Below the pieces are notes generated by a model. The model was not told the origin of the DNA. It ran no database searches and saw nothing but the letters and a program-made list of their open reading frames with translations. 64,000 bases of DNA from Bacteroidales bacterium (GTDB taxonomy: Bacteria > Bacteroidota > Bacteroidia > Bacteroidales > JAHJDW01). The position numbers and the translations under genes were made by a program. Shown here piece after piece: positions 1 through 46,829 of this stretch (position 1 is the stretch's first letter; every line of letters starts with the position of its first letter). The stretch covers positions 2,484 through 66,483 of the forward strand of contig JAQUPB010000002.1 in NCBI GenBank assembly GCA_029004185.1, in the 5' to 3' direction.

Positions 1-54
1 CAAATTTAGTAAATACTCTTAAATTTTTTCATTATTGCCTGATAAAAAAAATAC

Positions 55-147
55 ATCAGGGCTAAAGCCCATTCATGGCGGGTTTTATAACCCCGACCTT
101 AAGGTCGGGGTTACTGAAAAATGCATTTTTTGGACTTTAGTCCTGAT
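55..147. repeat. ~93-nt three-hairpin element with imperfect 16-nt terminal inverted repeats (copy A)
   Basis: Three hairpins: GGGC-TAAA-GCCC, CCCCGACC-TTAA-GGTCGGGG and GGAC-TTTA-GTCC. The ends ATCAGGGCTAAAGCCC and rc ATCAGGACTAAAGTCC match 14/16. A second copy lies at 34434-34527. Confidence 0.6.
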
Positions 148-258
148 TTTTTATGACTTTTATATATTTTTAAATATTAGATAATAATGAAACTTTTTAA
201 CAAAATACATTCTTTAGTCAATTTTTTCTATTTTTGAGAAAATAAAGTATCGAAAAAA

Positions 259-708
259 ATGAATATTCTTCATCCTCTTGAGGAATTAAAAAAACGGCCT
301 CTTTTGCTGAGTGTTTTATGTGTGCTTACAATTTTAGGGAATTGCATAATGATATTAAGCGGTTTGTTTTCATTGCTTGCTTTAAAAATTGTTTATTATT
401 TTTCAATATTTCCTATTCAAAACGAGCTTGTTTCTTATATTTTGTCGGGAGGTTCGGTTTTTGCAATAACTTCCATATTCCTGTGTTTTTTTACCATTGC
501 CGGAACAATAAAAATGTGGAACTTACGCAAAATGGGATTTTATCTTTATCTGATATCAAAAGCAGCTTTTATTTTAACTCCTTTTATTTTTCTTGTCCCG
601 GGAATTCTGGATCTTAATTCTGTTTTAAAAGGATTAATTCCGTATATTGCATTAACTTTTTTATTTGTAATTTTATATTTTCTAAATTTGAAATATATGC
701 ACGATTAA
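259..708 (+). CDS. hypothetical integral membrane protein
   Basis: 149-aa ORF with about four long hydrophobic segments (e.g. LLLSVLCVLTILGNCIMILSGLFSLLAL). No family recognised. Confidence 0.5.
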   Translation: MNILHPLEELKKRPLLLSVLCVLTILGNCIMILSGLFSLLALKIVYYFSIFPIQNELVSYILSGGSVFAITSIFLCFFTIAGTIKMWNLRKMGFYLYLISKAAFILTPFIFLVPGILDLNSVLKGLIPYIALTFLFVILYFLNLKYMHD

Positions 709-717
709 AAATATTGC

Positions 718-805
718 TTAATTGTTTTATTGTTAAATTGTTGTTTTCATTGTTGAGTGCAGAAATTAATATTATTTTTTAACAATTTAACAATTAGACA
801 ATTAA
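718..805. repeat. long hairpin built from AATTGTT-type words (25-bp stem, 38-nt loop)
   Basis: 718-742 is TTAATTGTTTTATTGTTAAATTGTT. The reverse complement of 781-805 is TTAATTGTCTAATTGTTAAATTGTT, matching 23/25. It lies between the ORF 259-708 stop and prkA. Confidence 0.6.
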
Positions 806-905
806 ACAATGAAGTCAATAGAAACATTATTCATAAAAAAAATGTAAAATATAATTTATAACTTAAATAAAGATTATTTAAAAAATACAATCGGAGGAAA
901 TTCCA

Positions 906-2987
906 ATGGCTAAAAAAAATGAAAATAATGCTGGTCCGCAGAAAAGCTTAATCCTGCACCTCGAAAATGTTATAAGCGGTGAACGTCGTTTCGAAAATGT
1001 TTTTCAGTCGGTATCGAGAATGATACTTGAAGACCAGAAAAAAATAGAAAAAGCTACTGTCAACGGGCGGAGTACTTATGATTTCAAGATTTTCCGTGAA
1101 GGCAAAAAACATATTATCGGAATGTTCGATGAAATCAACAGCTTTGTTTCTTTTGTAAAAGATGCGGCTGAAAGCGGCTCTTCTGCGGAAATGGCGTATG
1201 TTCTCATAGGCGAGCCCGGCAACGGCAAAACCTTTTTTGTGGATTTTCTGTGCAAGGCATACAGAGAATTTATTTCTCTTCCCCAAAATAAAAGATATAC
1301 TTTCAGTTTTAAAAATCTTGATAAAATCGGAGGATACGGCAAAATCACGAGCATAGAGTCACAGACTTTCGAAGACCCGATGATTCTTGCAATGAACCTT
1401 TTCGAAACAAAAGCTGAAAATGTTGAATTTCTGGCAAAAAACGGCGCAAATGAAAAACAAATAGAAAAGTTTTATAAAAATTATCGTCCGCTTGGTGCTT
1501 GCACATATTATATTTTTAATCAGATTAAAAATCATTGCAGCGGAAATATTGACAAGATGCTCGACTTTATTGATGTAGTTCCCGTTCAGGTTAGCGAATC
1601 GCGCGGAACAATTACGGGAAAATATGCCGCAAAAGATAAAATAACTTCTTCTGCCGTTGACTTACTTGGCGAAGAATCCTATTCACGGCTTTTACATATT
1701 GCCGAAACCGATAATCCTTACCGCTTCGATTTGCGAAGAGGAGCGTTGGCAAGGGTTGCCGGCGGCGGAATTCACTTTGCCGATGAAATTTTTAAAAACA
1801 AACGCGACCTCGTTCAGGTTTATCTGGGCGTTATCCAAAACAGAACAATCGAAATCGAAGGTTTCAAATGGCCTTTGGATACGCTAATTATAGCAACAAG
1901 CAACAATTCCGAATTTGCACGTTTCCTCGAAGAAAAAGAACAGGCACCGATAGTCGACAGATGCCGCCTGACCTATATGTCGCACAATACAAACTTCCAG
2001 CTGCAAAAAGAATTAACATCATTCTCTCTCGGCAGTCTGGAAAAAACAACGTTTGCAGGCGAAAAATTACATATCGACCCGAATTTAAATTATGGAATTT
2101 CAGTGTCGGTGGTGCTTTCACGAATGCCTTCATCCGACAAACTCACTCCCGTTGAAATGATGAAACTTGCCGCCGGTGAGGTTGCAGGCGAAAAAAGCAT
2201 AAGAACATTGGCCGAAGTAATTGACGACTTAAACCGCGACCCTGATATCACAAAGCGATTCGGACAAAAAGGTCTCGGTCACAGAAACCTCGGAAGGGCA
2301 ATTCAGATTTTGCTCGAACGTTCGGAAACGCAGGAAGGAAAGTGCATGTATGCAGGCGATATTTTTAAAGCACTCGAAAGCGTTATCCTTGACTATGTCC
2401 AGGATTCAAACGACAGGATTAAATATTTCAATGACCTGAAAATCGCAAAAGGGCTGCATCGTAAAAACATAATGACAACAATTTTTAATGCCTACATGGA
2501 CGAGCCCAATGCAGTTGAAAGAGATGTCATGAATTATGTAAACATGATTATCGGCATTGATGCCAAAAACCTCGGACCCGATAAAATATGGACATACCGC
2601 GACCCGCAGACAAACAAACTCATTCCCCTGAAAATTGACGAAACATTCATCAACAGCGTTGAGGAACGTATGGGTCTGAAAAACGAAGAACAGAAACAAA
2701 GTTACAGAACCACGGTTGCCAAAATATACGGACAGAAAATGATAACCGATCCGAACTATAATTTCATGGACAACAACGACCTTGTGAAAGCAGTTACCGA
2801 TGTACGACTGAAATCGGATGTTGCAGGTGCAGGTAGTCTTGTTGGTGCTTTGTCAAACAGAACCAACGAAGAAAATCAGAAACTTTACAACAGGATGATC
2901 GATACAATGGTTAATAAACTTGGTTATTGCACAACCTGTGCTCAGAAAACAATTGAGTATTTCTGCACGCAGGATGATGCAAATTAA
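906..2987 (+). CDS. prkA: PrkA family serine protein kinase (AAA+ N-terminal domain)
   Basis: 693 aa with Walker A GEPGNGKT. Length and layout fit PrkA/YeaG. DUF444 and SpoVR genes follow, the canonical neighbourhood. Confidence 0.85.
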   Translation: MAKKNENNAGPQKSLILHLENVISGERRFENVFQSVSRMILEDQKKIEKATVNGRSTYDFKIFREGKKHIIGMFDEINSFVSFVKDAAESGSSAEMAYVLIGEPGNGKTFFVDFLCKAYREFISLPQNKRYTFSFKNLDKIGGYGKITSIESQTFEDPMILAMNLFETKAENVEFLAKNGANEKQIEKFYKNYRPLGACTYYIFNQIKNHCSGNIDKMLDFIDVVPVQVSESRGTITGKYAAKDKITSSAVDLLGEESYSRLLHIAETDNPYRFDLRRGALARVAGGGIHFADEIFKNKRDLVQVYLGVIQNRTIEIEGFKWPLDTLIIATSNNSEFARFLEEKEQAPIVDRCRLTYMSHNTNFQLQKELTSFSLGSLEKTTFAGEKLHIDPNLNYGISVSVVLSRMPSSDKLTPVEMMKLAAGEVAGEKSIRTLAEVIDDLNRDPDITKRFGQKGLGHRNLGRAIQILLERSETQEGKCMYAGDIFKALESVILDYVQDSNDRIKYFNDLKIAKGLHRKNIMTTIFNAYMDEPNAVERDVMNYVNMIIGIDAKNLGPDKIWTYRDPQTNKLIPLKIDETFINSVEERMGLKNEEQKQSYRTTVAKIYGQKMITDPNYNFMDNNDLVKAVTDVRLKSDVAGAGSLVGALSNRTNEENQKLYNRMIDTMVNKLGYCTTCAQKTIEYFCTQDDAN

Positions 2988-2990
2988 AAT

Positions 2991-3058
2991 AGTTTCAAGT
3001 TTGAGGTTTGAAGTTTAAAGTTAAAAAGCTGCGAGCTGTGAGGTTCGAGCTACGAATA
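2991..3058. repeat. degenerate 7-8-nt word repeats directly after the prkA stop
   Basis: AGTTTCAA GTTTGAG GTTTGAA GTTTAAA GTTAAAAA, followed by GCTGCGA GCTGTGAG GTTCGA GCTACGAA. Confidence 0.55.
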
Positions 3059-3107
3059 GAAAAATTAATAGTTAAAAAATTGTCTTTAAGGTCAATTTAT
3101 TGAAATA

Positions 3108-3153
3108 AAACCCGTAGGGTTTAATATTGGTAATCCCGTGCTTTAGCACGGGG
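3108..3153. repeat. pair of GC-rich mini-hairpins in the prkA-yeaH spacer
   Basis: AAACCC-GTA-GGGTTT (3108-3122) and CCCGTGC-TTTA-GCACGGG (3135-3152). The reverse complement resembles 24516-24542 (TACCAATATT...CCC.TACGGG). Confidence 0.5.
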
Positions 3154-3208
3154 TAAAGAAATAACAACACATTAAGCGTCGCAAACAAAAAATAAATTAA
3201 TTGTTAAA

Positions 3209-4624
3209 ATGTATGATGCGACGCAAAGCAGAGAGTTTATGAATAGATACAAAATAATGAATTATAATAAAACATACAATAAACTAAAAAAAGCAGGTCT
3301 TTCAAAGGAGCAGGAGGAATTGATAAACCGCGAGATTGAAATTATTAAATCGTTTGAAAACTCCAAGGGTGAAGTTCCGGAAAAGCCGAAATTTCAGGGA
3401 TTGTATGACAAGAATGATTTGGAAATATTTCAGAAAATAAAACCCGATTTTGAAAAAGATTATTTACGCACATCCTTAAGAACTCTCGATGAACTTCTTG
3501 ACAAGGATAAAAAAAGAGAAGCTGACGGATTTCCACGCAGAATAAAAATCGGTAAACTAATTAAAACAGGCAAAGGCAACAAGGGAAAAGTTGTGGTTGT
3601 GCCTTCTACCACCGAACCGAAATTTTATCACGACGATTCAACAACCGAAGAAAATAAAACCGGTGGCAGCGGTGAAGGCGAAGAAGGAGAAGTGATTGGC
3701 GAACAACAGGCACAGCCTGAACAGGGCGAAGGCGATGCGCAGGGCGCAGGTCAAGGCGACGGAGCCGAACACGACATCAGTTCTGAAGCATTTGACCTTG
3801 GAAGAGTACTGACTGAAAAATTCCAACTTCCTAATCTGAAAGATAAAGGAAGAAAACGTTCATTTTCGAAATATACTTACGACCTTACCGATATTAACCG
3901 CGGCTTTGGTCAGGTACTCGATAAAAAAGCAACTTTAAAGAAAATAATAGAAACCAATATTCAGCTCGGAAAAATTGATGGCACAAAACCATTCTCGGGT
4001 GAAGACCTTCTTACAAGTCCGCAGGATTATGTGTACAGAATTTTTTCAAGAGAAAAAGATTTTGAAACGCAGGCAGTGGTTTTCTTCCTTCGCGATTATT
4101 CGGGCTCAATGCAAGGAAAACCTACGGAAGTTATTACAACTCAACATTTGCTGATTTACAGCTGGCTTATGTTTCAATATCAGAGTAATGTGATAACACG
4201 TTTCATTTTACACGACACCGAAGCAAAGGAAGTTCCCGATTTTTACACTTATTACCGTTCGCAGATTGCAGGCGGAACACGTGTTGCACCGGCCTTTCAG
4301 CTTGTGAATAAAATCGTGGAAGAAGAACGTCTGGCGAAAGATTATAATATTTATGTTTTTCACGGCACCGATGGCGACGACTGGGATACCGACGGCAAAG
4401 AACTTTTGGAGGCAATAGACAAAATGACAACATACGCAAACAGAATAGGAATAACGGTTGCAAAAAATTCATGGTCGGGTGAAAATAATACTGTGGTGGA
4501 AATTAATATTAATGATTCGGGATTATTAAAGGAAAAACCGCAGTTAATAAGAATTGACGGCTTCACCGCAGAAGAAGCAACTGAAGACAGAATTATTGAG
4601 GGTATAAAAAAATTAGTAGAATAA
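3209..4624 (+). CDS. yeaH: YeaH/YhbH (DUF444) family protein with vWA-like C-terminus
   Basis: 471 aa with an acidic G/E/Q-rich linker and a MIDAS-like FFLRDYSGSM. It sits between prkA and spoVR. Confidence 0.8.
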   Translation: MYDATQSREFMNRYKIMNYNKTYNKLKKAGLSKEQEELINREIEIIKSFENSKGEVPEKPKFQGLYDKNDLEIFQKIKPDFEKDYLRTSLRTLDELLDKDKKREADGFPRRIKIGKLIKTGKGNKGKVVVVPSTTEPKFYHDDSTTEENKTGGSGEGEEGEVIGEQQAQPEQGEGDAQGAGQGDGAEHDISSEAFDLGRVLTEKFQLPNLKDKGRKRSFSKYTYDLTDINRGFGQVLDKKATLKKIIETNIQLGKIDGTKPFSGEDLLTSPQDYVYRIFSREKDFETQAVVFFLRDYSGSMQGKPTEVITTQHLLIYSWLMFQYQSNVITRFILHDTEAKEVPDFYTYYRSQIAGGTRVAPAFQLVNKIVEEERLAKDYNIYVFHGTDGDDWDTDGKELLEAIDKMTTYANRIGITVAKNSWSGENNTVVEININDSGLLKEKPQLIRIDGFTAEEATEDRIIEGIKKLVE

Positions 4625-4630
4625 ATAATT

Positions 4631-5077
4631 TTAAAGATTGAAAAATTGAAAGATTAAAAGATTATGCAATATAAAAGATTTGAGGACTTGGAAATTTGGA
4701 AAAAAGCTGTAGAAATTGCAGTAATTATTTACAAATTGGCAAATACCGGAAAGTTAAAGAATGATTTTGCAACTAACGACCATTTAAGAAAAACTTCGCT
4801 TTCGATATCGAATAATATTGCCGAAGGATTTGAATACAATAACAACAATCAGTTTATTAAATATCTTTATATTGCAAAGAGTTCAGCAGGAGAACTTAGA
4901 AATCAAGTTTATGTTTTAAAAGAAGCTGAAATTATTGATAAAGAAATATACGAAAATATATATAATAGGTGTTTGGATGTCTCAAAGCAAATTTCAAATT
5001 TCATTAAATATCTGAAAACGTATCAAAAAAACAAAAAGCTTGTCAATCTTTAAATCTTTCAATTTTTTAATCTTTTA
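4631..5077 (+). mobile_element. candidate inserted cassette: inverted-repeat arms enclosing a four-helix-bundle gene
   Basis: The left arm (4631-4663) and right arm (5046-5077) pair over ~31 bp by hand. The segment exactly fills the gap between the yeaH stop and the spoVR ATG. Confidence 0.45.
4664..5053 (+). CDS. four-helix-bundle protein (23S rRNA intervening-sequence protein / Avd-like family)
   Basis: 129 aa with motifs FEDLEIWKKA, SISNNIAEGF and AKSSAGELRNQ, typical of TIGR02436/PF05635-type proteins. Confidence 0.85.
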   Translation: MQYKRFEDLEIWKKAVEIAVIIYKLANTGKLKNDFATNDHLRKTSLSISNNIAEGFEYNNNNQFIKYLYIAKSSAGELRNQVYVLKEAEIIDKEIYENIYNRCLDVSKQISNFIKYLKTYQKNKKLVNL

Positions 5078-6700
5078 ATGGAGCTAGTAAACCAACATAC
5101 AAAGAAAATAATGGAGGAGTGCAAAGTCAGGGCTCGTGCTGCAGGACTTAAGTTCGATAACGAATCGCTTGAATATATTGTATCGAACATAGATATGCTT
5201 GAACTTCATCCAAAAGTTATGATTCCTACTTTATATGATTACTGGGTTAACGATGTTGAAGTTCTTAAAGAAAAAGGAAAATATTCGCTTTACCCGAATA
5301 ATCCTTATGAGACGGTTATAAATTCACGTCCGGCAATTTCCTTTTACAATGATAATAATCCGGATTGGATGAACATAATGATTTTTTATCATGTTCTCGC
5401 TCATATAGATTGTTTTCAGAATAATGTATTATTTGAAAAAACATGGAATGATGATTTTGTAGGGCAGGCGCTTGCCGATAAACGGCTGGTTGCAAATCTG
5501 CGGAGCGAGCATGGACGCTGGCTTGATTATGCAATTGAATTCAGCAGGAATGTAGATAATCTTACGGGATATTTTAAAATATTGTCACTGCAGAATTTCC
5601 CTAAAAACATTGAACCATCGGCAAAAGCGAAATATTATTTTGCTACATTTTTACAGGAAAAAATAAAAATGCCCGCAAATGAAATTTATAAGGAAGTTGA
5701 AAAATTCAATAATTTCATAGAAAAGCAGGGCGATATCGGAGAAACAATGTTTTTCACAGACGTAAAAATTAAACATCCCGAATTTCAGGCATTGTACGAG
5801 CGTTTTGGTGAAGCCGAAAAACACGAAGCAACGGATGTGATGGAATTTATTAAAGATAATTCCCCGTTTTTGAAAAAGGATAATAACAGCTGGATGAAGT
5901 CGGTGATGAGTGTTGTGAGAAATACGGCACTGTATTTTGCACCGCAGATAAGAACGAAAATATTGAATGAGGGGTGGGCAAGTTATTGGCACGACCGACT
6001 TTTCATTTCCGACGACAGAATTAAAGGTCACGAAATAAATTATGCAAAATTAAATGCGGGAGTTACATCATTGAACCGTATTGGTTTAAATCCTTACGCT
6101 ATTGGTTTGCGTTTAATTCAGTATATCGAAATGCTTGCCGACAAAGGAAAACTTGATTATGATTTTCAAAAGCTCGAAGATATTGATAAACGGGGAAGCT
6201 ACGATAAAAAAGCAAAAAAAGGCAATGAAGCAATATTTGAAATCAGAAAAAATTTCTCCGATTTTATGCTGATAAATACTTTTATTAATCAGGATTTTGT
6301 TGATATGCATGGTTTATTTGTTGTCGGAATACGATATAATCCGCAGAGAAATACCAACGAATACTACATAAAAAGCAGGAAAGCCGCAGATTATAAAAAA
6401 ATGCTTCTGGACTCATTGTATCATCCGCCTTACGTAACGGTTAATATAGCCAAAACAAGCGAAGCAAACCTTTATCTCGAACATAAATTTGAAGGAAAGC
6501 AATTGATAAATGAATTCATTTCCGATACAATGCTCGGCATTTCATATTTATGGGGTTCACAGGTTCAGCTTGAAACTACTGAAATAGTTAAGAAAGAACA
6601 GAACCAGCTTTTCAATGCTGAAGAACAGGAAGAGGAATTTGAATACAGAAAAGTGCTTTATACTTATGAAAATAAAAGCATAAATAAAGTTTACTTATAA
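5078..6700 (+). CDS. spoVR: SpoVR family protein
   Basis: 540 aa with the NEGWASYWH motif. It is the last gene of the prkA-yeaH-spoVR arrangement. Confidence 0.85.
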   Translation: MELVNQHTKKIMEECKVRARAAGLKFDNESLEYIVSNIDMLELHPKVMIPTLYDYWVNDVEVLKEKGKYSLYPNNPYETVINSRPAISFYNDNNPDWMNIMIFYHVLAHIDCFQNNVLFEKTWNDDFVGQALADKRLVANLRSEHGRWLDYAIEFSRNVDNLTGYFKILSLQNFPKNIEPSAKAKYYFATFLQEKIKMPANEIYKEVEKFNNFIEKQGDIGETMFFTDVKIKHPEFQALYERFGEAEKHEATDVMEFIKDNSPFLKKDNNSWMKSVMSVVRNTALYFAPQIRTKILNEGWASYWHDRLFISDDRIKGHEINYAKLNAGVTSLNRIGLNPYAIGLRLIQYIEMLADKGKLDYDFQKLEDIDKRGSYDKKAKKGNEAIFEIRKNFSDFMLINTFINQDFVDMHGLFVVGIRYNPQRNTNEYYIKSRKAADYKKMLLDSLYHPPYVTVNIAKTSEANLYLEHKFEGKQLINEFISDTMLGISYLWGSQVQLETTEIVKKEQNQLFNAEEQEEEFEYRKVLYTYENKSINKVYL

Positions 6701-6706
6701 AAAAAC

Positions 6707-6778
6707 GCCACAGATTCGCAGATTATAAAACTACTCTTTTTTAAAATATTGTGTAAATTTAATCTGTGAATCTGTGGC
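6707..6778. repeat. GCCACAGATT-family palindrome (copy 1), likely terminator of spoVR
   Basis: GCCACAGATTCGCAGATTA (6707-6725) pairs with TAATCTGTGAATCTGTGGC (6760-6778). The stem is 19 bp with one mismatch and the loop is 34 nt. It starts 7 nt after the spoVR stop. Confidence 0.65.
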
Positions 6779-6803
6779 AATTTTGATACGCAATATTTGT
6801 TAT

Positions 6804-7373
6804 ATGACTCTGAAAATAAATCTTAAATTAATTATTTTATTTTTTTCATTTTTAAATGTTTTTTGTGCGGGTTCGGAAAAATTAAATAATAAAACAAATG
6901 ATAGTTTAGTTATGAAAATCGTTTTAAAAAGCAATGGATTCAATGATGGCGAGATGATGCCTGCAAAATTCACCTGCGATGGCGAAAATATTTCACCTCA
7001 ATTATCATGGGATTCTGTTCCCGAAAAAACAAAAACTTTCGCAATAATCTGTGACGACCCAGATGCACCGATGAGAGCATGGGTACATTGGGTGATATTT
7101 AATATTCCTGCAAATATGAAAGAATTGAAAGAAGGAATGAAAAAGAATTCGATTTTGGAAAACGGAATCAAGCAGGGTACAACCGATTTTGGTGAAACGG
7201 GATACGGTGGTCCTTGTCCTCCAAGCGATACACACAGATATTATTTTAAAATTTATGCACTGGATTGTGAATTAAATCTTAAAGTCGATGCAACAAAAGA
7301 ACAACTCCTGAAAGCAATGGAAGGACACATATTAGCCGAAGGTGAATTAATTGGAAAATATAGAAGAAAATAA
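6804..7373 (+). CDS. YbhB/YbcL family PEBP (Raf kinase inhibitor-like) protein, probable lipoprotein
   Basis: Motifs CDDPDAP, WVHWVIFNIP and GYGGPCPPSDTHRYYF. The ATG at 6804 gives signal peptide MTLKINLKLIILFFSFLNVFC. The track start at 6774 lies inside the palindrome. Confidence 0.8.
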   Translation: MTLKINLKLIILFFSFLNVFCAGSEKLNNKTNDSLVMKIVLKSNGFNDGEMMPAKFTCDGENISPQLSWDSVPEKTKTFAIICDDPDAPMRAWVHWVIFNIPANMKELKEGMKKNSILENGIKQGTTDFGETGYGGPCPPSDTHRYYFKIYALDCELNLKVDATKEQLLKAMEGHILAEGELIGKYRRK

Positions 7374-7461
7374 ATTCCCCAACCATATTAAATTACAATG
7401 TATTCTTTGATTTTTTTGATAAAAACTCTAAACTTGGCTTTTATTATGCAGTAAATTTTTG

Positions 7462-7469
7462 TATATTTG
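7462..7469 (+). promoter_or_regulatory. Bacteroidota sigma-A -7 box (TATATTTG)
   Basis: Exact TAnnTTTG, 22 nt upstream of the ATG at 7491. Confidence 0.4.
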
Positions 7470-7490
7470 TACAAGTAAAAAATCATTCAA

Positions 7491-7778
7491 ATGTCTGAAA
7501 AAGAAATAAAATCAAAATTAAATCCTTCTCTGTTCTGGGAATTTGATTTTAAAAAAATTGACCTAAAAAAAAACAAACCGCTTATAATTGAAAGAGTTGT
7601 TACAAGGGGTGAATTGGATGAATTTCTTACTATTCTGGCATATTATGGCGAGAAATCGATAAAAGAAGAAGTGATAAAAATCCGTAATCTTGATAAATAT
7701 ACTGTCAATTATTTTCATTTGGTTTTTAAAATACCAAAAAAACAATTTTTATGTTATACAAAGAGACAGTTGGATTAA
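7491..7778 (+). CDS. DUF6922-like small protein, putative antitoxin partner of the AbiEii-type NTase
   Basis: 95 aa with LFWEFDF...IIERVVTRGELDEF...YYG. It overlaps the downstream nucleotidyltransferase gene by 28 nt. Family assignment is from memory of the motif pattern. Confidence 0.55.
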   Translation: MSEKEIKSKLNPSLFWEFDFKKIDLKKNKPLIIERVVTRGELDEFLTILAYYGEKSIKEEVIKIRNLDKYTVNYFHLVFKIPKKQFLCYTKRQLD

Positions 7779-8395
7779 AAATTTTTAATCTTATTAAAGA
7801 AATTCAAGGCTTTAAAAAGTTTAGTAAATTTTATCTGGCTGGCGGAACTGCATTGAGTTTGCAATTCGGTCACAGAAAATCAATAGATATTGATTTATTT
7901 ACAGAAAAAGATTTCAATCATATTGAAATAAATAATTTTTTAAAAGAAAAATATAAAAACAGATATAAAAATTCTTTTTTAGATATTAATTCCTGCGGAG
8001 GTTTTATTGATGGAATTAAAATTGATATATTAGCCCATAAATATAAATTGCTTGATAATCCTATAGAAAAAGAAAACGTTAAATTTCTCGGATTAAATGA
8101 TATTTCTGCAATGAAAGTAAATGCTATTTATTCTGATGGTTCAAGAGTTAAGGATTTTATTGATATTTATTTTTTGCTTGATAAAATGAGTTTAAACGAT
8201 ATTATTGAGAATTTCAGAAGAAAATATAATTCAGAAAATTCTTATTATGCTACAAAAAGCATTGTATATTTTGATGATGTTCGTTTAAATGATTTTCCTG
8301 TTATAACAGATAAAAAAATCAAATGGAAAGATATTAAATCAAGATTAATTAAAACACATGAAAGTATTATTAAAAACAAATTAAAAAAGAGTTAA
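7751..8395 (+). CDS. nucleotidyltransferase, AbiEii/AbiGii toxin family (DUF1814-like, short form)
   Basis: 214 aa with N-terminal NTase signature YLAGGTALSLQFGHRKSIDIDLF (G-G-x...D-x-D). Confidence 0.7.
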   Translation: MLYKETVGLKIFNLIKEIQGFKKFSKFYLAGGTALSLQFGHRKSIDIDLFTEKDFNHIEINNFLKEKYKNRYKNSFLDINSCGGFIDGIKIDILAHKYKLLDNPIEKENVKFLGLNDISAMKVNAIYSDGSRVKDFIDIYFLLDKMSLNDIIENFRRKYNSENSYYATKSIVYFDDVRLNDFPVITDKKIKWKDIKSRLIKTHESIIKNKLKKS

Positions 8396-8406
8396 TTAAA
8401 AGCTAA

Positions 8407-9144
8407 ATGAAAATTTATTCCAGAATACTTGAAAACATTAAGAAAAACAAAAAGCAGTTTGCTGTTTTAATAGACCCCGATAAACTTGAAAAGGAAGAAA
8501 TTTCAAAAATTTCAAAAACGGCAAATGAAGCGGGAGTTGATTTTTTCTTTGTCGGCGGGAGTTTACTTACTAATGATAATCTTGATAACTGCATTAAAAT
8601 TTTAAAACAAAATTCAAAAATTCCTGTTTTAATATTTCCCGGTAATAACCTGCAGATAAACCAGAATGCCGACGGAATACTTTTCCTTTCACTTATTTCG
8701 GGCAGAAATGCCGAAATGCTTATAGGGAAACATGTTATTGCGGCTCCGTATATAAAAGCTTTTGGTCTCGAAGTTATTCCCACCGGCTATATGCTTATTG
8801 ACAGCGGAAAAGCGACAACCGCTTCGTATATGAGTAATTCATTTCCCATTCCCCATGAAAAAGATGAAATTGCAATGTGCACGGCTATGGCAGGAGAAAT
8901 GCTCGGATTGAAAACGATATATATGGATGCAGGCAGCGGTGCTGAAAAATCAATTTCTGCAAAAATGATTTCAAAAGTGAAACAGAATATTTCAGTTCCT
9001 TTAATAATAGGAGGAGGAATAAAAACTTCAGAAAAAGCAGTTGAATGCTGTAGGGCCGGTGCTGATATTATTGTTATAGGAAATGCAATAGAAGATAACT
9101 TTCAGCTTATAGGAAGCATTTCCGGTGCTTTGAAAAAAATATAA
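8407..9144 (+). CDS. geranylgeranylglyceryl/heptaprenylglyceryl phosphate synthase family protein (PcrB/GGGPS)
   Basis: 245 aa in TIM-barrel style. Motifs LIDPDK, FFFVGGS and C-terminal phosphate-binding IIGGGIKT...IVIGNA. Confidence 0.75.
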   Translation: MKIYSRILENIKKNKKQFAVLIDPDKLEKEEISKISKTANEAGVDFFFVGGSLLTNDNLDNCIKILKQNSKIPVLIFPGNNLQINQNADGILFLSLISGRNAEMLIGKHVIAAPYIKAFGLEVIPTGYMLIDSGKATTASYMSNSFPIPHEKDEIAMCTAMAGEMLGLKTIYMDAGSGAEKSISAKMISKVKQNISVPLIIGGGIKTSEKAVECCRAGADIIVIGNAIEDNFQLIGSISGALKKI

Positions 9145-9154
9145 AAAAATCTCT

Positions 9155-11488
9155 TTAATATTTTCTCACCAAATCTTTATCGAGCACATAAACGCAAATA
9201 TGTTTTGCTCCTTCCTGTGTATAGCCGAATTTGCATTTAAGATTTGTGATAAGCATTTTGATTTCTTTCTTCAGTTTTTCGTCGTAAGCATTGAAAGTTT
9301 GTGTGCCGAAATCAATTATTCCTCTGCGGAAATTAGCGTTATCAATGTATGGAGTAAGTGAATTTTCTTTAAGGTTTCTTGTAAACTTATTGAAAAGATG
9401 TTTGTACTGTTCGGTATCGGTAATTTTCTTTCCCGAAAGTTTTATTTCCTGCGATAGTGTTTTTGAGACGTATTCGCTTTGCATGTCCTTTCTGAATTGT
9501 ATTCTTTGTTCTTCCGAACTTGTTGTTCCGAGAAACATTGCTTCGAAATTTTTGAAGAAATTATCTGAAATTTCAATCAAATGGCCTGTATTGGTACATT
9601 TCACTTTTTCGCCGGGTTCATAATTTATTGCAAAAAGATAATCCTGTATATCGTTTGAAATCTGGGTTTCGTTGAAAAAATACATAGATTCTTTAACTTC
9701 CTGCAATACGTTGAAATCATACAAATCCTCGAGCGATTGAATAAATCCTTCGGGAATATATTCGACAAGCTTTTCACTGTCCTGCAGGAAAAATGATTTT
9801 ACCATTTCCATTGTTACAGGCTTTCCTGTTTTTGTATATTTTGAAATGAATGAATTGAAAACATTAAGAGATTGACGTCCCGAAATGCCATGTGCACCCT
9901 CATTTTCAGAATCGGCAATTATTTCTTTTCTTGTCTGCCTGTCGAAAGTTTTTATGTCTTCTTCGGAAAGCCAGGTCGGGATTTTGCCGGTATAAATGTC
10001 CATTTTCAACAACATCAGGTTCCTGTCGATATACTTTCTGTATTTCTCCGAATCCTGTATCCATCGGTTTATTGCGGGCGAATCTAAATTCAATCTTGTG
10101 GAAATAATTATTTTTGCAAAATTACTCAATACTCTCGGCAGGAATTTAGAAGTAACCGATTCGCTGAACTTGTTTTTATAAATTGCCACTTCGGTGTTAT
10201 AATCGAGAATATAAGGAATACAAACTGTTATAACCCTGTCCTGAAATGATTTCACGTTTTCATAATGCCGTTTATCTTCGGGATTTATCAAACCCACGAA
10301 TAATGTTTTTATTCTTTCCTCAACAAGTTCGACTTTATGAACGCCATCGCTGATAATGCCGTGCAGATCAATCAGTCTTTCAACATTGTGTTCTTTAATA
10401 TCCATTATTGTATGTACGCCGTTGTTGGTGCTTGCGAGATAAGAATGAATGTATTTTATTTCATCATTTTTAAATAATTCATTTATATTTTTCTGCAATG
10501 TAGGATTCGTTATTGGTTTTTTCATAACTTCATCACCGGGATTATAAACGCTTACACCGCTTCCGAACTGCCTGCTGAAATCCATCCTTCTTGCGTTTAT
10601 CATGTTGAAAATTTCGAGAGGGTCGCCGACTTTATTAATAAGGTTATTATAAATAGAGCTACAGATATGACAAGGAGAATCTTTTAAAATCCATTCATAT
10701 TCTTTATCATTAAAAATTTTATGCTTGAATTTTTCATCGGAAATAAGTTCGTCGAGAAAATTTTTTCTGAATGCTTTTGGTATTTGAAGAATAGGATGGT
10801 CGTGGCTCGGACATGGAACATCCAGAAACTTTTTCGGGTGAGTTGTTTTCAGATATTCTTCAGAAGATTGCTTGAGATTACTTTTTCCGCTTTCTTCTTT
10901 GCCGAAAATATTTATTTGATTTTGAAATTCCTGAAAATTGGAGATTTTATCAACATCAAGCCGCCAGTATGTTTCAAACATAAAACCCTCAGGAGTTTTA
11001 GTGTATGCTTCAAGCTGAAGAAGGAGATTATTTAGAAATGTGCTTTTGCCGCTTCCCGGAGGTCCTTCGAAAAGGTAAATATGATTGTTTTGTATACCCT
11101 TTTTAAAACTCTTTGCAAGATTCATAAACCGATTTGCGAACAAGCGGTCTGCAAAGAAAGGGTCATCACAATCCCGTACAAACATTTTCGAAAAATCGTA
11201 TCGTACAAAACCTATTGAATCGTTTGAAACTTCGTATTCATCTTTGCCTTCAGGAACAAAGTAATGAACCATGTCGTGAAAAAGCTGGAAAATATTCCTG
11301 AGTGCAAGTTCGGGCTGGTCGGCAACCAGATAAAGAAAATCGTTAAAAAGAATAGGCAGGCGGTTTTCTTTTTCGCGGATGTCATTGCTCAGGTTTATCA
11401 ATACTTCAAGGCGCTTACCTCTGCCCTGGATTTCTTCGAAATTTTCGATTTTTTTTACTTTGGTTTTCGGCTTTTTTTGTTTTGACAT
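9155..11488 (-). CDS. divergent PrkA-like AAA+ ATPase/kinase paralogue
   Basis: 777 aa with Walker A GPPGSGKS. The segment VPCPSHDHPILQIPKAFRKNF resembles the B. subtilis PrkA CPMHEDPLHLIPHHLRDDF region as I recall it. Confidence 0.6.
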   Translation of the reverse strand: MSKQKKPKTKVKKIENFEEIQGRGKRLEVLINLSNDIREKENRLPILFNDFLYLVADQPELALRNIFQLFHDMVHYFVPEGKDEYEVSNDSIGFVRYDFSKMFVRDCDDPFFADRLFANRFMNLAKSFKKGIQNNHIYLFEGPPGSGKSTFLNNLLLQLEAYTKTPEGFMFETYWRLDVDKISNFQEFQNQINIFGKEESGKSNLKQSSEEYLKTTHPKKFLDVPCPSHDHPILQIPKAFRKNFLDELISDEKFKHKIFNDKEYEWILKDSPCHICSSIYNNLINKVGDPLEIFNMINARRMDFSRQFGSGVSVYNPGDEVMKKPITNPTLQKNINELFKNDEIKYIHSYLASTNNGVHTIMDIKEHNVERLIDLHGIISDGVHKVELVEERIKTLFVGLINPEDKRHYENVKSFQDRVITVCIPYILDYNTEVAIYKNKFSESVTSKFLPRVLSNFAKIIISTRLNLDSPAINRWIQDSEKYRKYIDRNLMLLKMDIYTGKIPTWLSEEDIKTFDRQTRKEIIADSENEGAHGISGRQSLNVFNSFISKYTKTGKPVTMEMVKSFFLQDSEKLVEYIPEGFIQSLEDLYDFNVLQEVKESMYFFNETQISNDIQDYLFAINYEPGEKVKCTNTGHLIEISDNFFKNFEAMFLGTTSSEEQRIQFRKDMQSEYVSKTLSQEIKLSGKKITDTEQYKHLFNKFTRNLKENSLTPYIDNANFRRGIIDFGTQTFNAYDEKLKKEIKMLITNLKCKFGYTQEGAKHICVYVLDKDLVRKY

Positions 11489-11513
11489 AATGCTGAAATT
11501 TGCAATAAAATTA

Positions 11514-11540
11514 GTAAAAGATTAAAGATTAAAAATTAAA
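11514..11540. repeat. orphan run of AAAGATT words resembling the 4HB cassette arm
   Basis: GTAAAAGATTAAAGATTAAAAATTAAA, compared with arm TTAAAGATTGAAAAATTGAAAGATTAAAAGATT. Confidence 0.4.
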
Positions 11541-11609
11541 TTTAATAAATTTATTTATAAGTACTTCTGAATTCTTTGTTAATTTTGTTGATGTAAAAAA
11601 TAGTTAAAT

Positions 11610-12413
11610 ATGACGATTAGAAAAATTATTGCAGTCACAGTAATTATAATTGTGGTTTTAGCTGCAATCTGGTTATACAGAAATCGATGTTACTTGAAAA
11701 AATTATATGTTGAATCGCGGACCGATCTGAAAATACCTTATTGCAACCAAAAAGGAAAAACGTCAAATATAAACTTCAGCAATGTAAATTGGGTTCACAG
11801 GGTTAACAGCATTGAACGATATTTTGAAATTTGCGAAAAATATAACGGAATTGAAATTGATGTAAATTTTGATAGCGAAAAAAATTGCTTTGATGTATAT
11901 CATGCCCCAAAGTCCTCTGTAAATCTTTGTCTGGAAGAGATGCTGAAAAATGTAAAAAATCCCGAAAAGACTTTTTACTGGCTAGATTTCAAAAACCTTG
12001 ATTCAACAAATTACATCCCTGCTCTGAATAACCTCAACAGTATTTGTGAAAAACTTAAAATCAAAAACAATTTAATAGTTGAATCCTCAAATCCTGTTAT
12101 ACTTTCTCATTTTACCGATTCGGGATTTTATACAAGTTATTATATTTTTACTTTTAATCCTTATGCATTGTCAGATTCTGTTGCAAATTACTATTATGAA
12201 AAAGTATGCGCAATACTTGATAAAAGCAGAGTTTGTGCAATATCGGGTTATGCCCAGCAGTTGGTTTTCATGAAACATTTTCCGGGTTACGATTTCTTAT
12301 TATGGAACCTAGAAAGCAATAAATTTTGGAGTAATATTTTTAATAAAAGATATAAATCAATAAAGAATGTAAAGGTAATATTGGTTAAAGACATTACTAA
12401 AAGTTATATATGA
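11610..12413 (+). CDS. membrane-anchored PLC-like/GDPD-superfamily phosphodiesterase (menorin/FAM151-like motif pattern)
   Basis: 267 aa with an N-terminal TM helix. The ordered motifs WVHRVNS ... IEIDV ... YHAP ... WLDFKN match the pattern I recall for DUF2181/menorin. Confidence 0.45.
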   Translation: MTIRKIIAVTVIIIVVLAAIWLYRNRCYLKKLYVESRTDLKIPYCNQKGKTSNINFSNVNWVHRVNSIERYFEICEKYNGIEIDVNFDSEKNCFDVYHAPKSSVNLCLEEMLKNVKNPEKTFYWLDFKNLDSTNYIPALNNLNSICEKLKIKNNLIVESSNPVILSHFTDSGFYTSYYIFTFNPYALSDSVANYYYEKVCAILDKSRVCAISGYAQQLVFMKHFPGYDFLLWNLESNKFWSNIFNKRYKSIKNVKVILVKDITKSYI

Positions 12414-14098
12414 TAATATTTAAAAGAAAATACGATTTAGCATTTATTGTATATACGGTATGCTTTCCTGCAATTGCGTGTTTGCATGCCGAAAACATCA
12501 CTATAAATAATTTTATATTAGCAATATTTTTGTCTTTATTGATAGGAATAATAGTGTATCTTATTTCGCTGAATTTTGATGGTATTGGCAGAAAATTATT
12601 TTTATGGTGCTTTTATATTATTCTCATAATTCCTTCGGTCATTGTTTTATCATATATTTTAATTGACGGAACTTTAATAAAAGGTTCAAATTATTTTATA
12701 GTTTTTGAAACAAATTTCAATGAATCTTCAGAGTTTTTGAGCGGATATTTATCAGCAAAAACAATAACTATATTATTAATATACGCGTTACCTTCAGTTG
12801 CATATCTGGTTTTTTCGAAAAAAAGCATAATTGATTTCAGAAATAAAAAGCTTTTTTCATTTTCAATTAAAAGAGAGAAAAAGTCATTAGTATTAAAATA
12901 TAAATACACGGGAATTGTCTTTATACTGTGCCTGATCTTTTTGTTAAAAAATGAAAATATTACAAGGAATAATTATATTCTGGATTTTTACAGAAGTTTT
13001 TATTCTTTCAGGAAAATAATAATAAAATATAAGGAATGTGAAAGTAAAAGGAATGTAAAAAACTTTATTGTTACGACTTCTTTACCCAACAGTGCAAATA
13101 AGACATTTGTAATTATAATCGGAGAGGCGTTGTCAAAACACCATATGTCTTTATATGGATATGAAAGAAAAACAAACCCACTGCTCGAAAAAATCAAAAA
13201 TGAACTTCTCGTTTATAATAATGTGATTTCTCCTCATTCACATACGCTGGAAGTAATGAGATGTTTATTGACTTTTGCCGATAATGAAAATGAAAAACCT
13301 TATTTTGAAAAACCTTCAGTAATTGAATTATTTAATAATGCCGGCTTTGAAACATATTGGATAGAAAATCAGGTTTCCATGAGTAAATGGGAAAATACGG
13401 GAATAATATCTAATAAAGCAAAACATTTTTATATGGCAAATTCAGATGACACCTGGTTTTATTATAGTTCTGTGTTTGATGAGTCAGCACTTAAATATCT
13501 GAATAAAATTTTGCCTGATAAAAAAGGAAAAGATAAAGTTATTTTTGTTCATTTAATGGGGAATCATGCAATTTATGATAAAAGATATCCTCATTCATTC
13601 GCGGTTTTTGATAACAATAAGGATTTTTATCAGGTAAAACAAAATTTGAAGGATAACGAAAAAAAGATTGTTAACGAATACGACAATTCGGTATTATATA
13701 ATGATTTTGTGGTTTCATCAATTATCGAAAAAATCAAAAAAACCGAAAAGTTTTCATTTGTAATTTATATACCTGATCACGGCGAAGAGGTTTATAATTT
13801 CAGGGATTATTACGGACATACTTTTTCAAGCAAGTCAAGTTATATGTGTGAAATACCTTTTATACTCTGGCGTTCGGAAGAGTTTAAAAAAGAAGTTAGT
13901 ATTTCGGTTGACACGACAAGACCATATTCAACCGAAAATCTGATATATTCCCTATCCGATTTGGCAAGACTGAATTATAATGATTATGATGCCGGTAAGA
14001 GCATATTTTCCAAAGAATTTATTGTAAGAAAAAGAATGGTCGGAGAACTCACATATGAAGAGCTAAAAGCAAAAACATTATCCCTTGGCAAGAATTAA
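12410..14098 (+). CDS. phosphoethanolamine transferase-like sulfatase-family membrane enzyme
   Basis: 562 aa with about five N-terminal TM helices. The sulfatase domain shows IIIGEALSKHHMSLYGYERKTNP and HLMGNH. An ATGA overlap joins it to the upstream gene. Confidence 0.75.
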   Translation: MIIFKRKYDLAFIVYTVCFPAIACLHAENITINNFILAIFLSLLIGIIVYLISLNFDGIGRKLFLWCFYIILIIPSVIVLSYILIDGTLIKGSNYFIVFETNFNESSEFLSGYLSAKTITILLIYALPSVAYLVFSKKSIIDFRNKKLFSFSIKREKKSLVLKYKYTGIVFILCLIFLLKNENITRNNYILDFYRSFYSFRKIIIKYKECESKRNVKNFIVTTSLPNSANKTFVIIIGEALSKHHMSLYGYERKTNPLLEKIKNELLVYNNVISPHSHTLEVMRCLLTFADNENEKPYFEKPSVIELFNNAGFETYWIENQVSMSKWENTGIISNKAKHFYMANSDDTWFYYSSVFDESALKYLNKILPDKKGKDKVIFVHLMGNHAIYDKRYPHSFAVFDNNKDFYQVKQNLKDNEKKIVNEYDNSVLYNDFVVSSIIEKIKKTEKFSFVIYIPDHGEEVYNFRDYYGHTFSSKSSYMCEIPFILWRSEEFKKEVSISVDTTRPYSTENLIYSLSDLARLNYNDYDAGKSIFSKEFIVRKRMVGELTYEELKAKTLSLGKN

Positions 14099-14116
14099 AA
14101 AGCTTCAAACAATGAG

Positions 14117-15973
14117 TTAATTCACGCTTTCCTCCAGCACCTCATCCTTTTCAATTCGCAGATTTTCAATAATAAAATTTTGTCTTTCGGGAGTGTTTTT
14201 ACCCATGTAATAACTGAGAATTGAATCAACAGAATCGTCTTTACGCATAATGACAGGGTCGAGACGCATTGATTTTCCTATGAATTGCTTGAACTCGTCG
14301 GGAGAAATTTCGCCCAGACCTTTAAATCGGGTGATTTCGGGCTTTACACCGAGTTTATTTATTGCATTTATTTTTTCGTCTTCGGAATAACAATAAATAG
14401 TTTCTTTTTTGTTTCTAACCCTAAACAAAGGTGTTTGCAGAATATATAAATGTCCGTTTTTTACAAGATCAGGAAAAAACTGAATGAAAAAAGTAATAAG
14501 CAGTAAACGTATATGCATCCCGTCAACATCAGCATCAGTGGCAATTATAATGTTGTTATATCTTAAATTTTCCAGGTCTTCTTCAATATCCAGCGCACTT
14601 TGCAAAAGGTTGAATTCTTCATTTTCATAAACAATTTTTTTCGACATTCCATAACAATTCAGCGGTTTTCCTTTTAAGCTGAAAACTGCCTGCACATTTA
14701 CATCTCTTGCTTTTGTAATTGAGCCGCTTGCTGAATCTCCTTCGGTGATAAATAATGTTGTATCCAGCCTGTCTTCGTGGTTTGTATTGTAATGATTACG
14801 GCAATCACGGAGTTTTTTATTATGCAGGTTTGCTTTACGGGAAGTTTCACGCGATATTTTTTTTATGCTTGCTATTTCTTTTCTTTCTTTTTCCGACTGA
14901 AGAATTTTTCCAAGCAATGCTTCAGCCACATCGGAATGAATATGAAGATAGTTATCCAGCTGACGTTTTACGACATCATTAATGTAGTTTCTGACTGTAG
15001 CGCCGTTTGGTTCCATTAATGTCGAACCGAGTTTTGTTTTTGTCTGCGATTCGAAAACGGGTTCATGAACTTTAACGCTTATTGCTGCAATTATTGATGT
15101 TCTTATGTCCGAAGGGTCAAAATCTTTTTTATAAAATTCGCGGATTGTTTTTACGATAGCTTCCCTAAAAGCCGCCTGATGTGTGCCTCCCTGTGTTGTA
15201 TGCTGCCCGTTTACAAAAGAATAATATTCTTCACCATACTGGCTTGTTAAATGAGTCATTGCAAACTCAAAATCATTTTCAGCAATATGAATGATGGGAT
15301 AAATCAGAGAACTGCTAATGTTTCTTTCAAGCAAATCGGCTAATCCGTTTTCCGAAATAAATGAATTTCCATTATAATTTACTGTTAGCTGCTTATTCAG
15401 AAAAACATAATTCCATATCAGGTTTTCGATATATTCATTAAAAAAATGATATTTACCGAATATTTTTTCGTCAGGAATAAAAGAAATTATTGTTCCGTCA
15501 TCCAGGTCGCATTTATGTTCTTTTTCTTCTTTTGCAACATCACCCTGCTGGAATTCCACAATCTTGGTTTTTTTATCCCTTATTGCCTGTACACAAAAAT
15601 AACTCGACAAAGCATTAACAGCTTTTGAACCCACCCCATTCAATCCTACGGTTTTTTTAAAAACTTTAGAGTCGTATTTTGCTCCTGTATTTATTGTTGA
15701 AACACAATCTATAACTTTGCCAAGAGGAATCCCCCTGCCATAATCCCTTATGGTTACTTTATTTTCTTTAACCGAAATATCTATTTTTTTCCCATAACCC
15801 ATTATAAACTCATCAATGGAGTTATCAATGGTTTCCTTAATCAATACATAAATACCGTCATCATGGGAAGAACCGTCTCCAAGTTTCCCGATATACATTC
15901 CGGGGCGAAACCGTATGTGCTCTTTCCAGTCAAGCGACTTTATGCTTTCTTCCGTGTATTTTTCCACAACCAT
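14117..15973 (-). CDS. parE: DNA topoisomerase IV subunit B
   Basis: Motifs [31 protein letters not shown] and TOPRIM EGDSA. ATG at 15973 (MVVEKYTEE) is preferred over the TTG at 15988 used in the track. Confidence 0.85.
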
Positions 15974-16078
15974 AACTTTTTTTTGCAAAGATAGTTAAAT
16001 ACAAATTTAAAATTAAAGTAAAAATTTATAAGTGGTTGAAATTTAGCCGATAAATTTTTTTTATAATAATTATGTTTT

Positions 16079-18681: not shown

Positions 18682-18728
18682 GCCACAGATTAAAGAATTG
18701 CTTTTTTTGTAATCTGTGAATCTGTGGC
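18682..18728. repeat. GCCACAGATT-family palindrome (copy 2, shortened left arm)
   Basis: GCCACAGATTA (18682-18692) ... TAATCTGTGAATCTGTGGC (18710-18728), 9 nt after the stop of the upstream ORF. Confidence 0.6.
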
Positions 18729-18754
18729 TAATTTGATTAGTCTAATTATTCGTT

Positions 18755-22290: not shown

Positions 22291-22324
22291 TTTGTAAAAA
22301 TAGAGAAAATTTCATAATAAATTT

Positions 22325-22378
22325 GCCACAGATTCACAGATTATAAAAAAGTGATTTTATAATCTGTGAATCTGTGGC
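22325..22378. repeat. GCCACAGATT-family palindrome (copy 3, perfect 24-bp stem, 6-nt loop)
   Basis: GCCACAGATTCACAGATTATAAAA-AAGTGA-TTTTATAATCTGTGAATCTGTGGC. It lies between the divergent tgt and OmpA-like gene starts. Confidence 0.7.
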
Positions 22379-22472
22379 GGTTTTATTTTTACAAATTTTA
22401 GAAAGCACTTGACATAGTTGTTTTAATGTTATATGTTTGTTTTGAAAAAGAATATCAATAATAAATAAAATA

Positions 22473-27138: not shown

Positions 27139-27170
27139 TTGTGAAGTGGTGAAATTGTGAATTTGTGAGT
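27139..27170. repeat. degenerate word repeats after the stop of ORF 26491-27132
   Basis: TTGTGAAG TGGTGAAA TTGTGAAT TTGTGAG. Confidence 0.5.
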
Positions 27171-27315
27171 TTCAAGCCATTTGTAGTTTGTTGTTAAAAA
27201 GAATGATTCACTGAAGTTTCGACAGAAAAATCCTGACTCTTAAATTCTAAATTTATTCGATTGTTCGATTATTTCCGCCAGTTGGCGGATTCAAATACTC
27301 AAAGTTCTGGTATTA

Positions 27316-46794: not shown

Positions 46795-46829
46795 TAATTA
46801 ATAAATAATAATGAATAATTAATAATTTT

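Follow-up and report, generated by a model that had tools for sequence, protein, structure and literature searches.

A four-helix-bundle gene between inverted arrays of 8-nt words at the yeaH-spoVR junction of a Bacteroidales operon

We analyzed a 64,000-nt stretch of DNA from a Bacteroidales bacterium (GenBank assembly GCA_029004185.1, contig JAQUPB010000002.1, positions 2,484 to 66,483 of the forward strand; hereafter the window), in which a small gene for a four-helix-bundle (4HB) protein lies between the yeaH-like and spoVR-like genes of a prkA-yeaH-spoVR operon. As read from its sequence, the segment at this junction is a PF05635 gene together with two inverted arms of 8-nt words, inserted in sense orientation. 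On balance, we favor the interpretation that segment 4630-5078 is a 4HB cassette embedded in the host transcript and insulated by a stem; the cassette is probably a compact promoterless gene unit, selfish in character. Its parts are as follows.

4630-5078, plus strand: whole cassette, 449 bp, a 4HB unit of the intervening-sequence (IVS) type
4630-4663, plus strand: left arm, about four tandem 8-nt words plus TT, directly preceding the 4HB ATG
4664-5053, plus strand: 4HB gene, 129 aa, PF05635 / TIGR02436, Avd-like, intact
5045-5078, plus strand: right arm, reverse complement of the left arm, AATCTTTn words

The left arm (4630-4663, TTTAAAGATTGAAAAATTGAAAGATTAAAAGATT) starts 5 nt past the yeaH stop codon and follows the pattern TTnAAArA in the words TTTAAAGA TTGAAAAA TTGAAAGA TTAAAAGA and a final TT. 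The right arm (5045-5078, AATCTTTAAATCTTTCAATTTTTTAATCTTTTAA) overlaps the final 9 nt of the 4HB open reading frame (ORF), stop codon included, and ends with the A of the spoVR ATG, which pairs with T4630. A repeat search ranked the arms first among the inverted repeats of the region: they are 34 nt long, 91% complementary, and separated by 381 nt. Of the 34 positions, 31 form Watson-Crick pairs and one a G·U; the arm boundaries are statistical calls. From outer to inner, the helix consists of 2 bp, a U·U, 23 bp, an A·A (4656/5052), and 7 bp, and its single G·U (4640/5068) lies inside the 23-bp block. The coordinates and sequences that the original prediction had given for the segment, arms, and ORF were confirmed by direct reading. 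Its long arm pairing with one G·U also stood; the bulge that it had drawn did not, as the 34-nt helix is ungapped. The arm duplex was calculated at -30.8 kcal/mol, compared with -7.4 +/- 2.5 kcal/mol for shuffled right arms (z -9.3), and the alignment score of the arms had a z of ∼15. Folding of 4600-5100 closed the stem around the 4HB ORF in both the minimum-free-energy and the centroid structure, consistent with the predicted enclosure of the whole gene. An Rfam scan of 4000-7500 (E<=1) returned no rRNA match and nothing on the arms, and only two sub-threshold chance matches near 6672-6810.

The 129-aa product matched PF05635 (23S_rRNA_IVP) over its full length at 2.6e-28 and TIGR02436 at 1.6e-26 (92.6 bits, cutoff 24), and its AlphaFold model (pLDDT 95) is a four-helix bundle, in agreement with the predicted membership of the four-helix-bundle / 23S rRNA IVS protein family. 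The closest structures were Xcc0516 (2gsc) and BT_0352 (2rld), followed by Avd (4dwl), the accessory protein of diversity-generating retroelements (DGRs); the crystal entries 2gsc and 2rld each have five chains. The protein is basic (pI 9.3), and its nearest homologue in a database of 5.8 billion proteins is 64% identical. No PADLOC defense-system model fitted it, no second 4HB ORF was found in the 64-kb window, and its subfamily was nearly absent from viral contigs (1 weak match among 2.9 million).

The match of the model to Avd 4dwl (TM 0.72-0.85, 14% identity) could suggest a DGR remnant, that is, an orphan avd gene left after the loss of the reverse transcriptase (RT), template repeat (TR), and variable repeat (VR). 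The cassette shares with the Avd of Bordetella phage BPP-1 (4dwl, 8ub7) the four-helix-bundle fold with pentamer-type relatives and, in the RNA context of the protein, a duplex of cargo-flanking sequences of the avd:Sp type. However, the duplex of the cassette runs around the ORF of the 4HB protein itself and measures ∼32 bp against an average of ∼13 bp, and the cassette has no phage context. We detected no RT domain in the eight neighboring proteins, to which the RT scan was limited, and TR/VR-like direct repeats were absent within 16 kb; the only direct repeat of at least 35 nt in 1-16000 was a chance-like 37-nt match of 73%. The earlier statement that no complete DGR is present agrees with these searches. 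Moreover, sequence places the protein in the IVP/TIGR02436 branch (2gsc, 2rld) and not with Avd, the near absence of the subfamily from viral contigs speaks against such an origin, and the 74 relatives described below have the same stand-alone cassette layout. We therefore regard a DGR remnant as hardly tenable.

The host operon is made up of the following genes, in which PrkA, DUF444, and SpoVR domains were found, as expected for the prkA-yeaH-spoVR setting originally proposed.

906-2987, plus strand: PrkA-like, first gene of the host operon, by domain match
3209-4624, plus strand: DUF444 / YeaH-like, upstream host gene, stop codon TAA at 4622-4624
5078-6700, plus strand: SpoVR-like, downstream host gene, start codon abutting the stem base

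The eight proteins around the cassette (906-9144) include PrkA, DUF444, SpoVR, PBP, DUF6922, AbiEii, and PcrB. We scanned for SpoVR with one genome per species and obtained 80 loci, 69 of which had DUF444 directly upstream. None of these 69 related loci carried a 4HB gene between DUF444 and SpoVR; the distance from the yeaH stop to the spoVR start was 1-250 nt throughout and 1-12 nt in the nearest Bacteroidota. With 4631-5077 taken out, the two codons would be 6 nt apart. One locus (L070) had an unrelated 134-aa lipoprotein-like ORF at the junction.

Two relatives that are much closer and syntenic throughout, L168 and L170, came from a protein search. In L168, whose SpoVR is 90% identical, the yeaH-spoVR junction measures 97 nt and lacks an ORF. 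At its downstream end stands an array of AATCTTTn words that runs up to the spoVR ATG as the window right arm does, and just before these words come ∼20 nt similar to the final codons of the window 4HB gene. Most simply, the L168 junction would be a deletion remnant of the cassette. L170 (77% identical) has a different 4HB gene at the same junction, 34% identical and with an in-frame stop, between unrelated 30-nt arms of its own (AGAATTCAGTAGTCAG..., 27/30 complementary). From the empty sites, the remnant in L168, and the different gene in L170, it follows that the junction has been occupied, emptied, and re-occupied. The comparison of these loci identifies the cassette as a secondary insertion, as had been proposed, and shows that cassettes at one site evidently turn over by replacement or decay. 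Two of the other junctions held repeats and no ORF: a CATAG-word imperfect hairpin (L006 3830-3960, in a 180-nt yeaH-spoVR spacer) and (ATGATGA)x4 (L015, ∼3950-3985).

We then compared the segment with 80 metagenomic loci whose 4HB proteins share 37-56% identity with that of the window; 74 of the genes were usable. The sample, picked by similarity to the window protein, covers one subfamily plus two divergent examples. Arms were searched in flanks of 120/150 nt and expressed as z against shuffles. The loci were compared by these alignment z-scores and by control genes, and duplex energies were set aside because GC content confounds a duplex-energy statistic across loci. A flanking inverted repeat was found at z>4 for 55 of the 74 4HB genes and at z>6 for 47, bearing out, across related loci, the suggestion that other 4HB genes are bracketed by word-repeat arms of their own. 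The median arm was 33 nt, the arm-to-ATG gap 21 nt, the stop-to-arm gap 9 nt, and the unit ∼515 nt. The arm score attained by 34/74 4HB genes was attained by 6/610 control genes (1%) from the same DNA, the best-scoring of which was a known case, a transposase of the REP-associated tyrosine transposase (RAYT) type flanked by repetitive extragenic palindromes (REPs). Across the family, arms and 4HB protein evidently belong together as one unit.

The arms of the relatives are again tandem word arrays, with a period of 7, 8, or 9 only (mode 8) and a median of ∼4 copies per arm. Their words vary by locus (AAGATTGG, AGTTGGAA, GCGGATT, CGTTCAAA, AAGTTCCAG, ATGGCTTA) and have in common a loose core of GTT or GATT and then AAA. 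Arm polarity is fixed with respect to the ORF, the purine-rich arm standing upstream in 38 of 47 loci, and the words of two divergent 4HB paralogues in a single trp operon are of different types. The upstream neighbor was co-oriented in 55/58 loci (p 3e-6 against a baseline of 0.7) and the downstream neighbor in 53/59 (p 3e-4 against the same baseline), with median gaps to the host genes of ∼60 nt upstream and ∼35 nt downstream that are mostly arm sequence. Settings include trpE-4HB-trpG-4HB-MNT/HepT-trpD, paaA-4HB-paaB, and lexA-4HB, and ORF-less hairpins of the same words occur in neighboring junctions (paaB-paaC in L091; upstream of lexA in L130). Judged from these loci, the word structure of the arms and the intercalation into operons are general properties of the family, and the units are seen to sit co-directionally in operons, filling the whole gap between host genes. 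In L130, lexA stands between a GTTCCA-word hairpin without an ORF and a 4HB cassette with GTTCCA arms.

The cassettes have been passed down vertically, each at its fixed site, across long divergence, and the 4HB proteins are under purifying selection (dN/dS 0.03-0.17). The orthologues in L094 and L101 have diverged to saturation at synonymous sites (dS 1.1); the arms are nevertheless 91-96% complementary within each genome, and one word differs between the two loci in the same way on both arms (GTAAG vs GAAAA). Complementarity that persists at saturated dS, together with the matching word change, argues for active maintenance; the alignments show that arm complementarity and protein sequence alike are actively maintained. 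An identical protein (P0057) looked up across places stood in the same trp-operon context everywhere, with no sign of recent transposition.

The occurrence of the same cassette type in different operons bears on the idea that the 4HB protein was recruited by the host as a partner or regulator of the PrkA-YeaH-SpoVR stress module, with the arms as a regulatory hairpin. An intact, sense-oriented gene tightly fitted in the operon is compatible with this role. However, the gene is absent from the 69 related operons and lost in the 90% relative, and in the 77% relative its place is taken by a 34%-identical, apparently broken paralogue. The same cassette type also stands in trp, paa, and lexA settings, and in cas operons according to PMC3936711; we therefore see no specific functional link to PrkA, YeaH, or SpoVR and consider host recruitment very unlikely.

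ORF-bearing intervening sequences of rRNA, ∼0.4-0.8 kb in total, are known from Leptospira (Ralph & McClelland 1993, cited from PMC4990558) and Coxiella burnetii (Warrier et al. 2016). The Coxiella 23S IVS is 428-444 nt long, encodes S23p, and closes in a 28-bp terminal stem interrupted by one mismatch and one bulge, which RNase III cuts mid-stem, as found in vitro and by mapping of rapidly amplified cDNA ends (PMC4990558). The window cassette shares with these elements the PF05635 protein, the size (449 nt here versus 428-444 nt in Coxiella), and terminal inverted repeats that form a ∼30-bp stem with one or two defects around the whole ORF. Also shared are the sense orientation in the host transcript without a promoter of its own and a sporadic phylogenetic distribution with decay of the ORF in some lineages. 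The likeness to rRNA intervening sequences drawn in the original prediction was thus apt with regard to Coxiella IVS size and stem. The two differ in location, which is the tip of an rRNA helix there (helix 9, 25, or 45 of 23S, or 16S) and the junction of a protein-coding operon here; in the arms, which are tandem 8-nt-word arrays in the window; and in RNase III excision, demonstrated there and inferred here. In addition, purifying selection on the protein is clear here, whereas the Coxiella protein is seemingly unexpressed. By family, size, and stem, the window segment belongs with the ORF-bearing intervening sequences of rRNA, but it lies outside rRNA.

How might such a unit live in an operon? 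We found no Bacteroidetes -7 motif (TAnnTTTG) in 4400-5100. As there is no room for a promoter, none is recognizable, and orientation relative to the host is nearly constant, the cassette is best explained as transcribed within the host mRNA, by read-through from the host operon promoter. The arms would then pair in the host transcript into a stem of ∼32 bp, which would loop out the 4HB ORF and bring the yeaH stop beside the spoVR start; by this juxtaposition, the insertion would be structurally insulated. Opening of a long-range helix by a terminating ribosome is a classical route to translational coupling. Likewise, a ribosome terminating at yeaH could unwind the outer part of the stem and free the spoVR start, so that coupling would be kept. 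A duplex of this length is a substrate of RNase III, which could cut the stem, as it does in 23S rRNA intervening sequences, releasing a 4HB mRNA and splitting the operon transcript into two mRNAs. Intercistronic hairpins cut by RNase III are familiar from T7 early mRNA and from bacterial operons such as rpsO-pnp. As at those sites, the intercistronic hairpin of the cassette would let RNase III yield separately stable mRNAs; the T7 and rpsO-pnp sites are, however, short local stem-loops with no gene in the loop and are not mobile cassettes.

Several observations weigh against a stem-insulated cassette. Strong selection on a sense-strand RNA helix normally enriches G:U. However, among the non-Watson-Crick positions of 47 arm pairs, we counted 54 of the G:U type and 50 of the A:C type in wide windows, and 41 and 33, respectively, in narrow windows, that is, no asymmetry. 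The mismatches cluster at the variable word positions, and what counts may be the conserved words and not the perfection of the helix. The window stem also buries the 4HB start codon, which sits awkwardly with translation of the protein. Lastly, the Coxiella S23p protein is apparently not made in vivo (PMC4990558), while the purifying selection seen in these alignments says that the 4HB protein, unlike S23p, matters.

Because the arm mismatches show no excess of G:U, a role at the level of DNA is the main rival. Here, the arms would be terminal inverted repeats (TIRs) of a foldback type, serving as protein-binding word arrays for insertion, excision, or recombination, and they would be acted on either by the 4HB protein or by an enzyme that belongs to the host or works in trans. 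The mobility mechanism, or else template-switch (quasi-palindrome) correction, would preserve complementarity, with the RNA stem no more than incidental. Near-equal G:U and A:C counts (54 vs 50) are expected if both strands count equally, and the conserved word core with variable positions is iteron-like. Relatives carry different cassettes at the same junction, and ORF-less hairpins of the same words beside cassettes recall the pairing of miniature inverted-repeat transposable elements (MITEs) with autonomous elements, or of REPs with RAYTs. Eukaryotic Foldback elements have long inverted termini made of tandem short repeats, and the cassette is structurally analogous to them.

However, no transposase or recombinase lies within or beside the cassettes, the 4HB fold has no known catalytic activity, and near-identical copies are absent, the search having covered 64 kb of this genome and the nearest homologue among 5.8 billion proteins being 64% identical. 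Terminal inverted repeats, as in a TIR transposon or MITE, are present on the window segment. Its outer flanks (...TAAATAAT on the left and TGGAGC... on the right) contain no direct repeat, and no target-site duplication was seen at 4625-4629 / 5079-5083, a weak test given that the boundaries are not base-exact. Orthologous cassettes are inherited vertically over long divergence, arm sequences differ among close relatives, unlike the ends recognized by a transposase, and the very strong sense co-orientation with host operons would be left unexplained. Weighing these points, we give the DNA-level role real but clearly minor credence.

REP/RAYT systems and MITEs share with the cassettes a small gene between inverted hairpin-forming repeats and ORF-less hairpins nearby. 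However, the 4HB protein is neither a Y1 (IS200/IS605-like) nor another known transposase, the cassette arms vary from copy to copy with no genome-wide consensus, and multi-copy families of near-identical cassettes were not seen. The best-scoring control gene of the arm search, which in effect served as a positive control, is such a unit: a RAYT-type (IS200-like Y1) transposase at L130 3428-4096 between inverted REP-like repeats. Integron cassettes likewise have a small, promoterless, co-directional ORF expressed from an upstream promoter and an imperfect inverted repeat; attC, however, is one-sided (3'), whereas the window arms flank the ORF on both sides, and we found no integrase among the window neighbors, no attI, and no cassette array. 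The identities of DGR, integron cassette, TIR transposon, and REP/RAYT were all rejected, as the window segment lacks at least one defining feature of each.

A further alternative is an autoregulatory ribonucleoprotein, in which a pentameric 4HB protein would bind its own arm words as RNA, about one word per protomer, and would open or lock the stem to regulate its own translation, the processing of the host transcript, or both. Avd forms a pentameric barrel with positive charge and binds structured DGR RNA, adjoining a long-range duplex of TR-flanking sequences (bioRxiv 10.1101/2023.10.23.563531), and provides a precedent for a pentamer bound to RNA beside such a flanking duplex. The five chains of 2gsc and 2rld, the basic window protein (pI 9.3), the narrow arm period (7-9 nt) and copy number (median ∼4), the separate word type of each paralogue, and the fixed polarity (purine-rich arm upstream in 38/47 loci) all fit this alternative. 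However, the copy number centers on ∼4, not 5, drift alone could separate the word types of the paralogues, and the purine share of the left arm (57%) is near the general coding-strand bias (56%). Such a ribonucleoprotein, which we consider rather improbable, would be compatible with the stem-insulated cassette rather than exclusive of it and could coexist with a DNA-level role too.

In the searchable literature, which includes few subscription journals, PF05635 appeared only as the ORF of rRNA intervening sequences, as a relative of Avd in DGRs, and as a cas-operon-associated gene, and we found no description of word-repeat arms or of general operon intercalation for the family outside rRNA. 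PF05635 genes were reported as CRISPR-associated from their position between cas genes, such as cmr3 and cmr2 (PMC3936711; also listed in PMC10910872). Our analysis advises caution against guilt by association here, since promiscuous operon intercalation would explain cas-gene neighbors without a functional link. A 30-year-old curiosity is generalized in this way: the rRNA intervening sequences with an ORF would be a single case of a widespread cassette found in mRNA operons as well, and cassette function becomes testable in ordinary operons of culturable Bacteroidota, free of rRNA essentiality. A very large family of unknown function also gains a defining, searchable anatomy: a sense-oriented unit whose inverted arms hold about four 8-nt words each and which fills the whole intercistronic gap. 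If the RNA-stem model is true, a selfish gene can enter an operon without polar damage, and nature would offer a design for self-insulating, RNase III-excisable expression cassettes. The cassette may, in addition, shed light on how Avd and the flanking RNA duplex of DGRs arose. Taken to its furthest, PF05635 cassettes and ORF-less word hairpins would form an unrecognized prokaryotic foldback-type class living in host transcripts; the 4HB pentamer would recognize the words of its own arms and drive processing of the unit, its propagation, or both, rRNA intervening sequences would be a special case, and the Avd-duplex arrangement of DGRs an exaptation. We offer this wider synthesis as a speculation that is unlikely to hold in full.

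Other word repeats and hairpins occur near the cassette. At 713-742 / 781-810, between ORF 259-708 and prkA, lies an ORF-less hairpin with 30-nt arms (90% complementary, 38-nt loop) made of the tandem 8-nt words ATTGTTnn / nnAACAAT, that is, the same grammar as the 4HB arms around a gene-free loop. The 222-nt prkA-yeaH spacer holds, at 2991-3060, GTTTnAA x5 and then GCTnnGA x4 with no complementary partner. At the same prkA-yeaH junction, an MNT/HepT toxin-antitoxin pair accompanies a 67-aa ORF in L168, and L170 has a DUF559 gene between CCCCTTTTTTTAAAGGGGG palindromes. Two short GC-rich hairpins upstream of yeaH (AAACCCGTAGGGTTT, CCCGTGCTTTAGCACGGGG; 3085-3150 in the window and ∼2520-2600 in L168) are conserved between both and could be a structured leader or follow simply from how close the two genomes are.

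Another hairpin, built with arms of two CACAGATT words (GCCACAGATTCACAGATT...AATCTGTGAATCTGTGGC), recurs: it stands three times at gene ends in the window (6701-6784, 18683-18730, and 22316-22387) and again between paaB and paaC in L106 (3798-3852), with a half copy in L168 (4911-4928); it looks like a REP-like dispersed element or terminator. L091, orthologous to L106, has a different word hairpin between paaB and paaC. At 7491-8395, a DUF6922 / AbiEii (type IV toxin-antitoxin) pair separates PBP-family and PcrB-family genes that in L168 and L170 lie 4-12 nt apart without the pair; by this comparison, the site appears to be another operon junction colonized by a selfish cassette.

The solo run of AAAGATT words noted earlier at 11514-11540 is present, although it extends over 11504-11540 (AAAATTAGTAAAAGATTAAAGATTAAAAATTAAA) and has no complementary partner. 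It lies in a divergent region between ORF 11610 and a minus-strand 777-aa gene that is syntenic with a PrkA-domain gene in L168. Its 73% similarity to the yeaH end plus left arm (4606-4642) may be chance in AT-rich DNA. Further tandem 7-8-nt arrays are GTGAAnTT x4 (27141-27172), AAATCCn x4 (27316-27342), TTCGAnA x5 (31354-31390), and AACTGAAA x4 (46795-46861).

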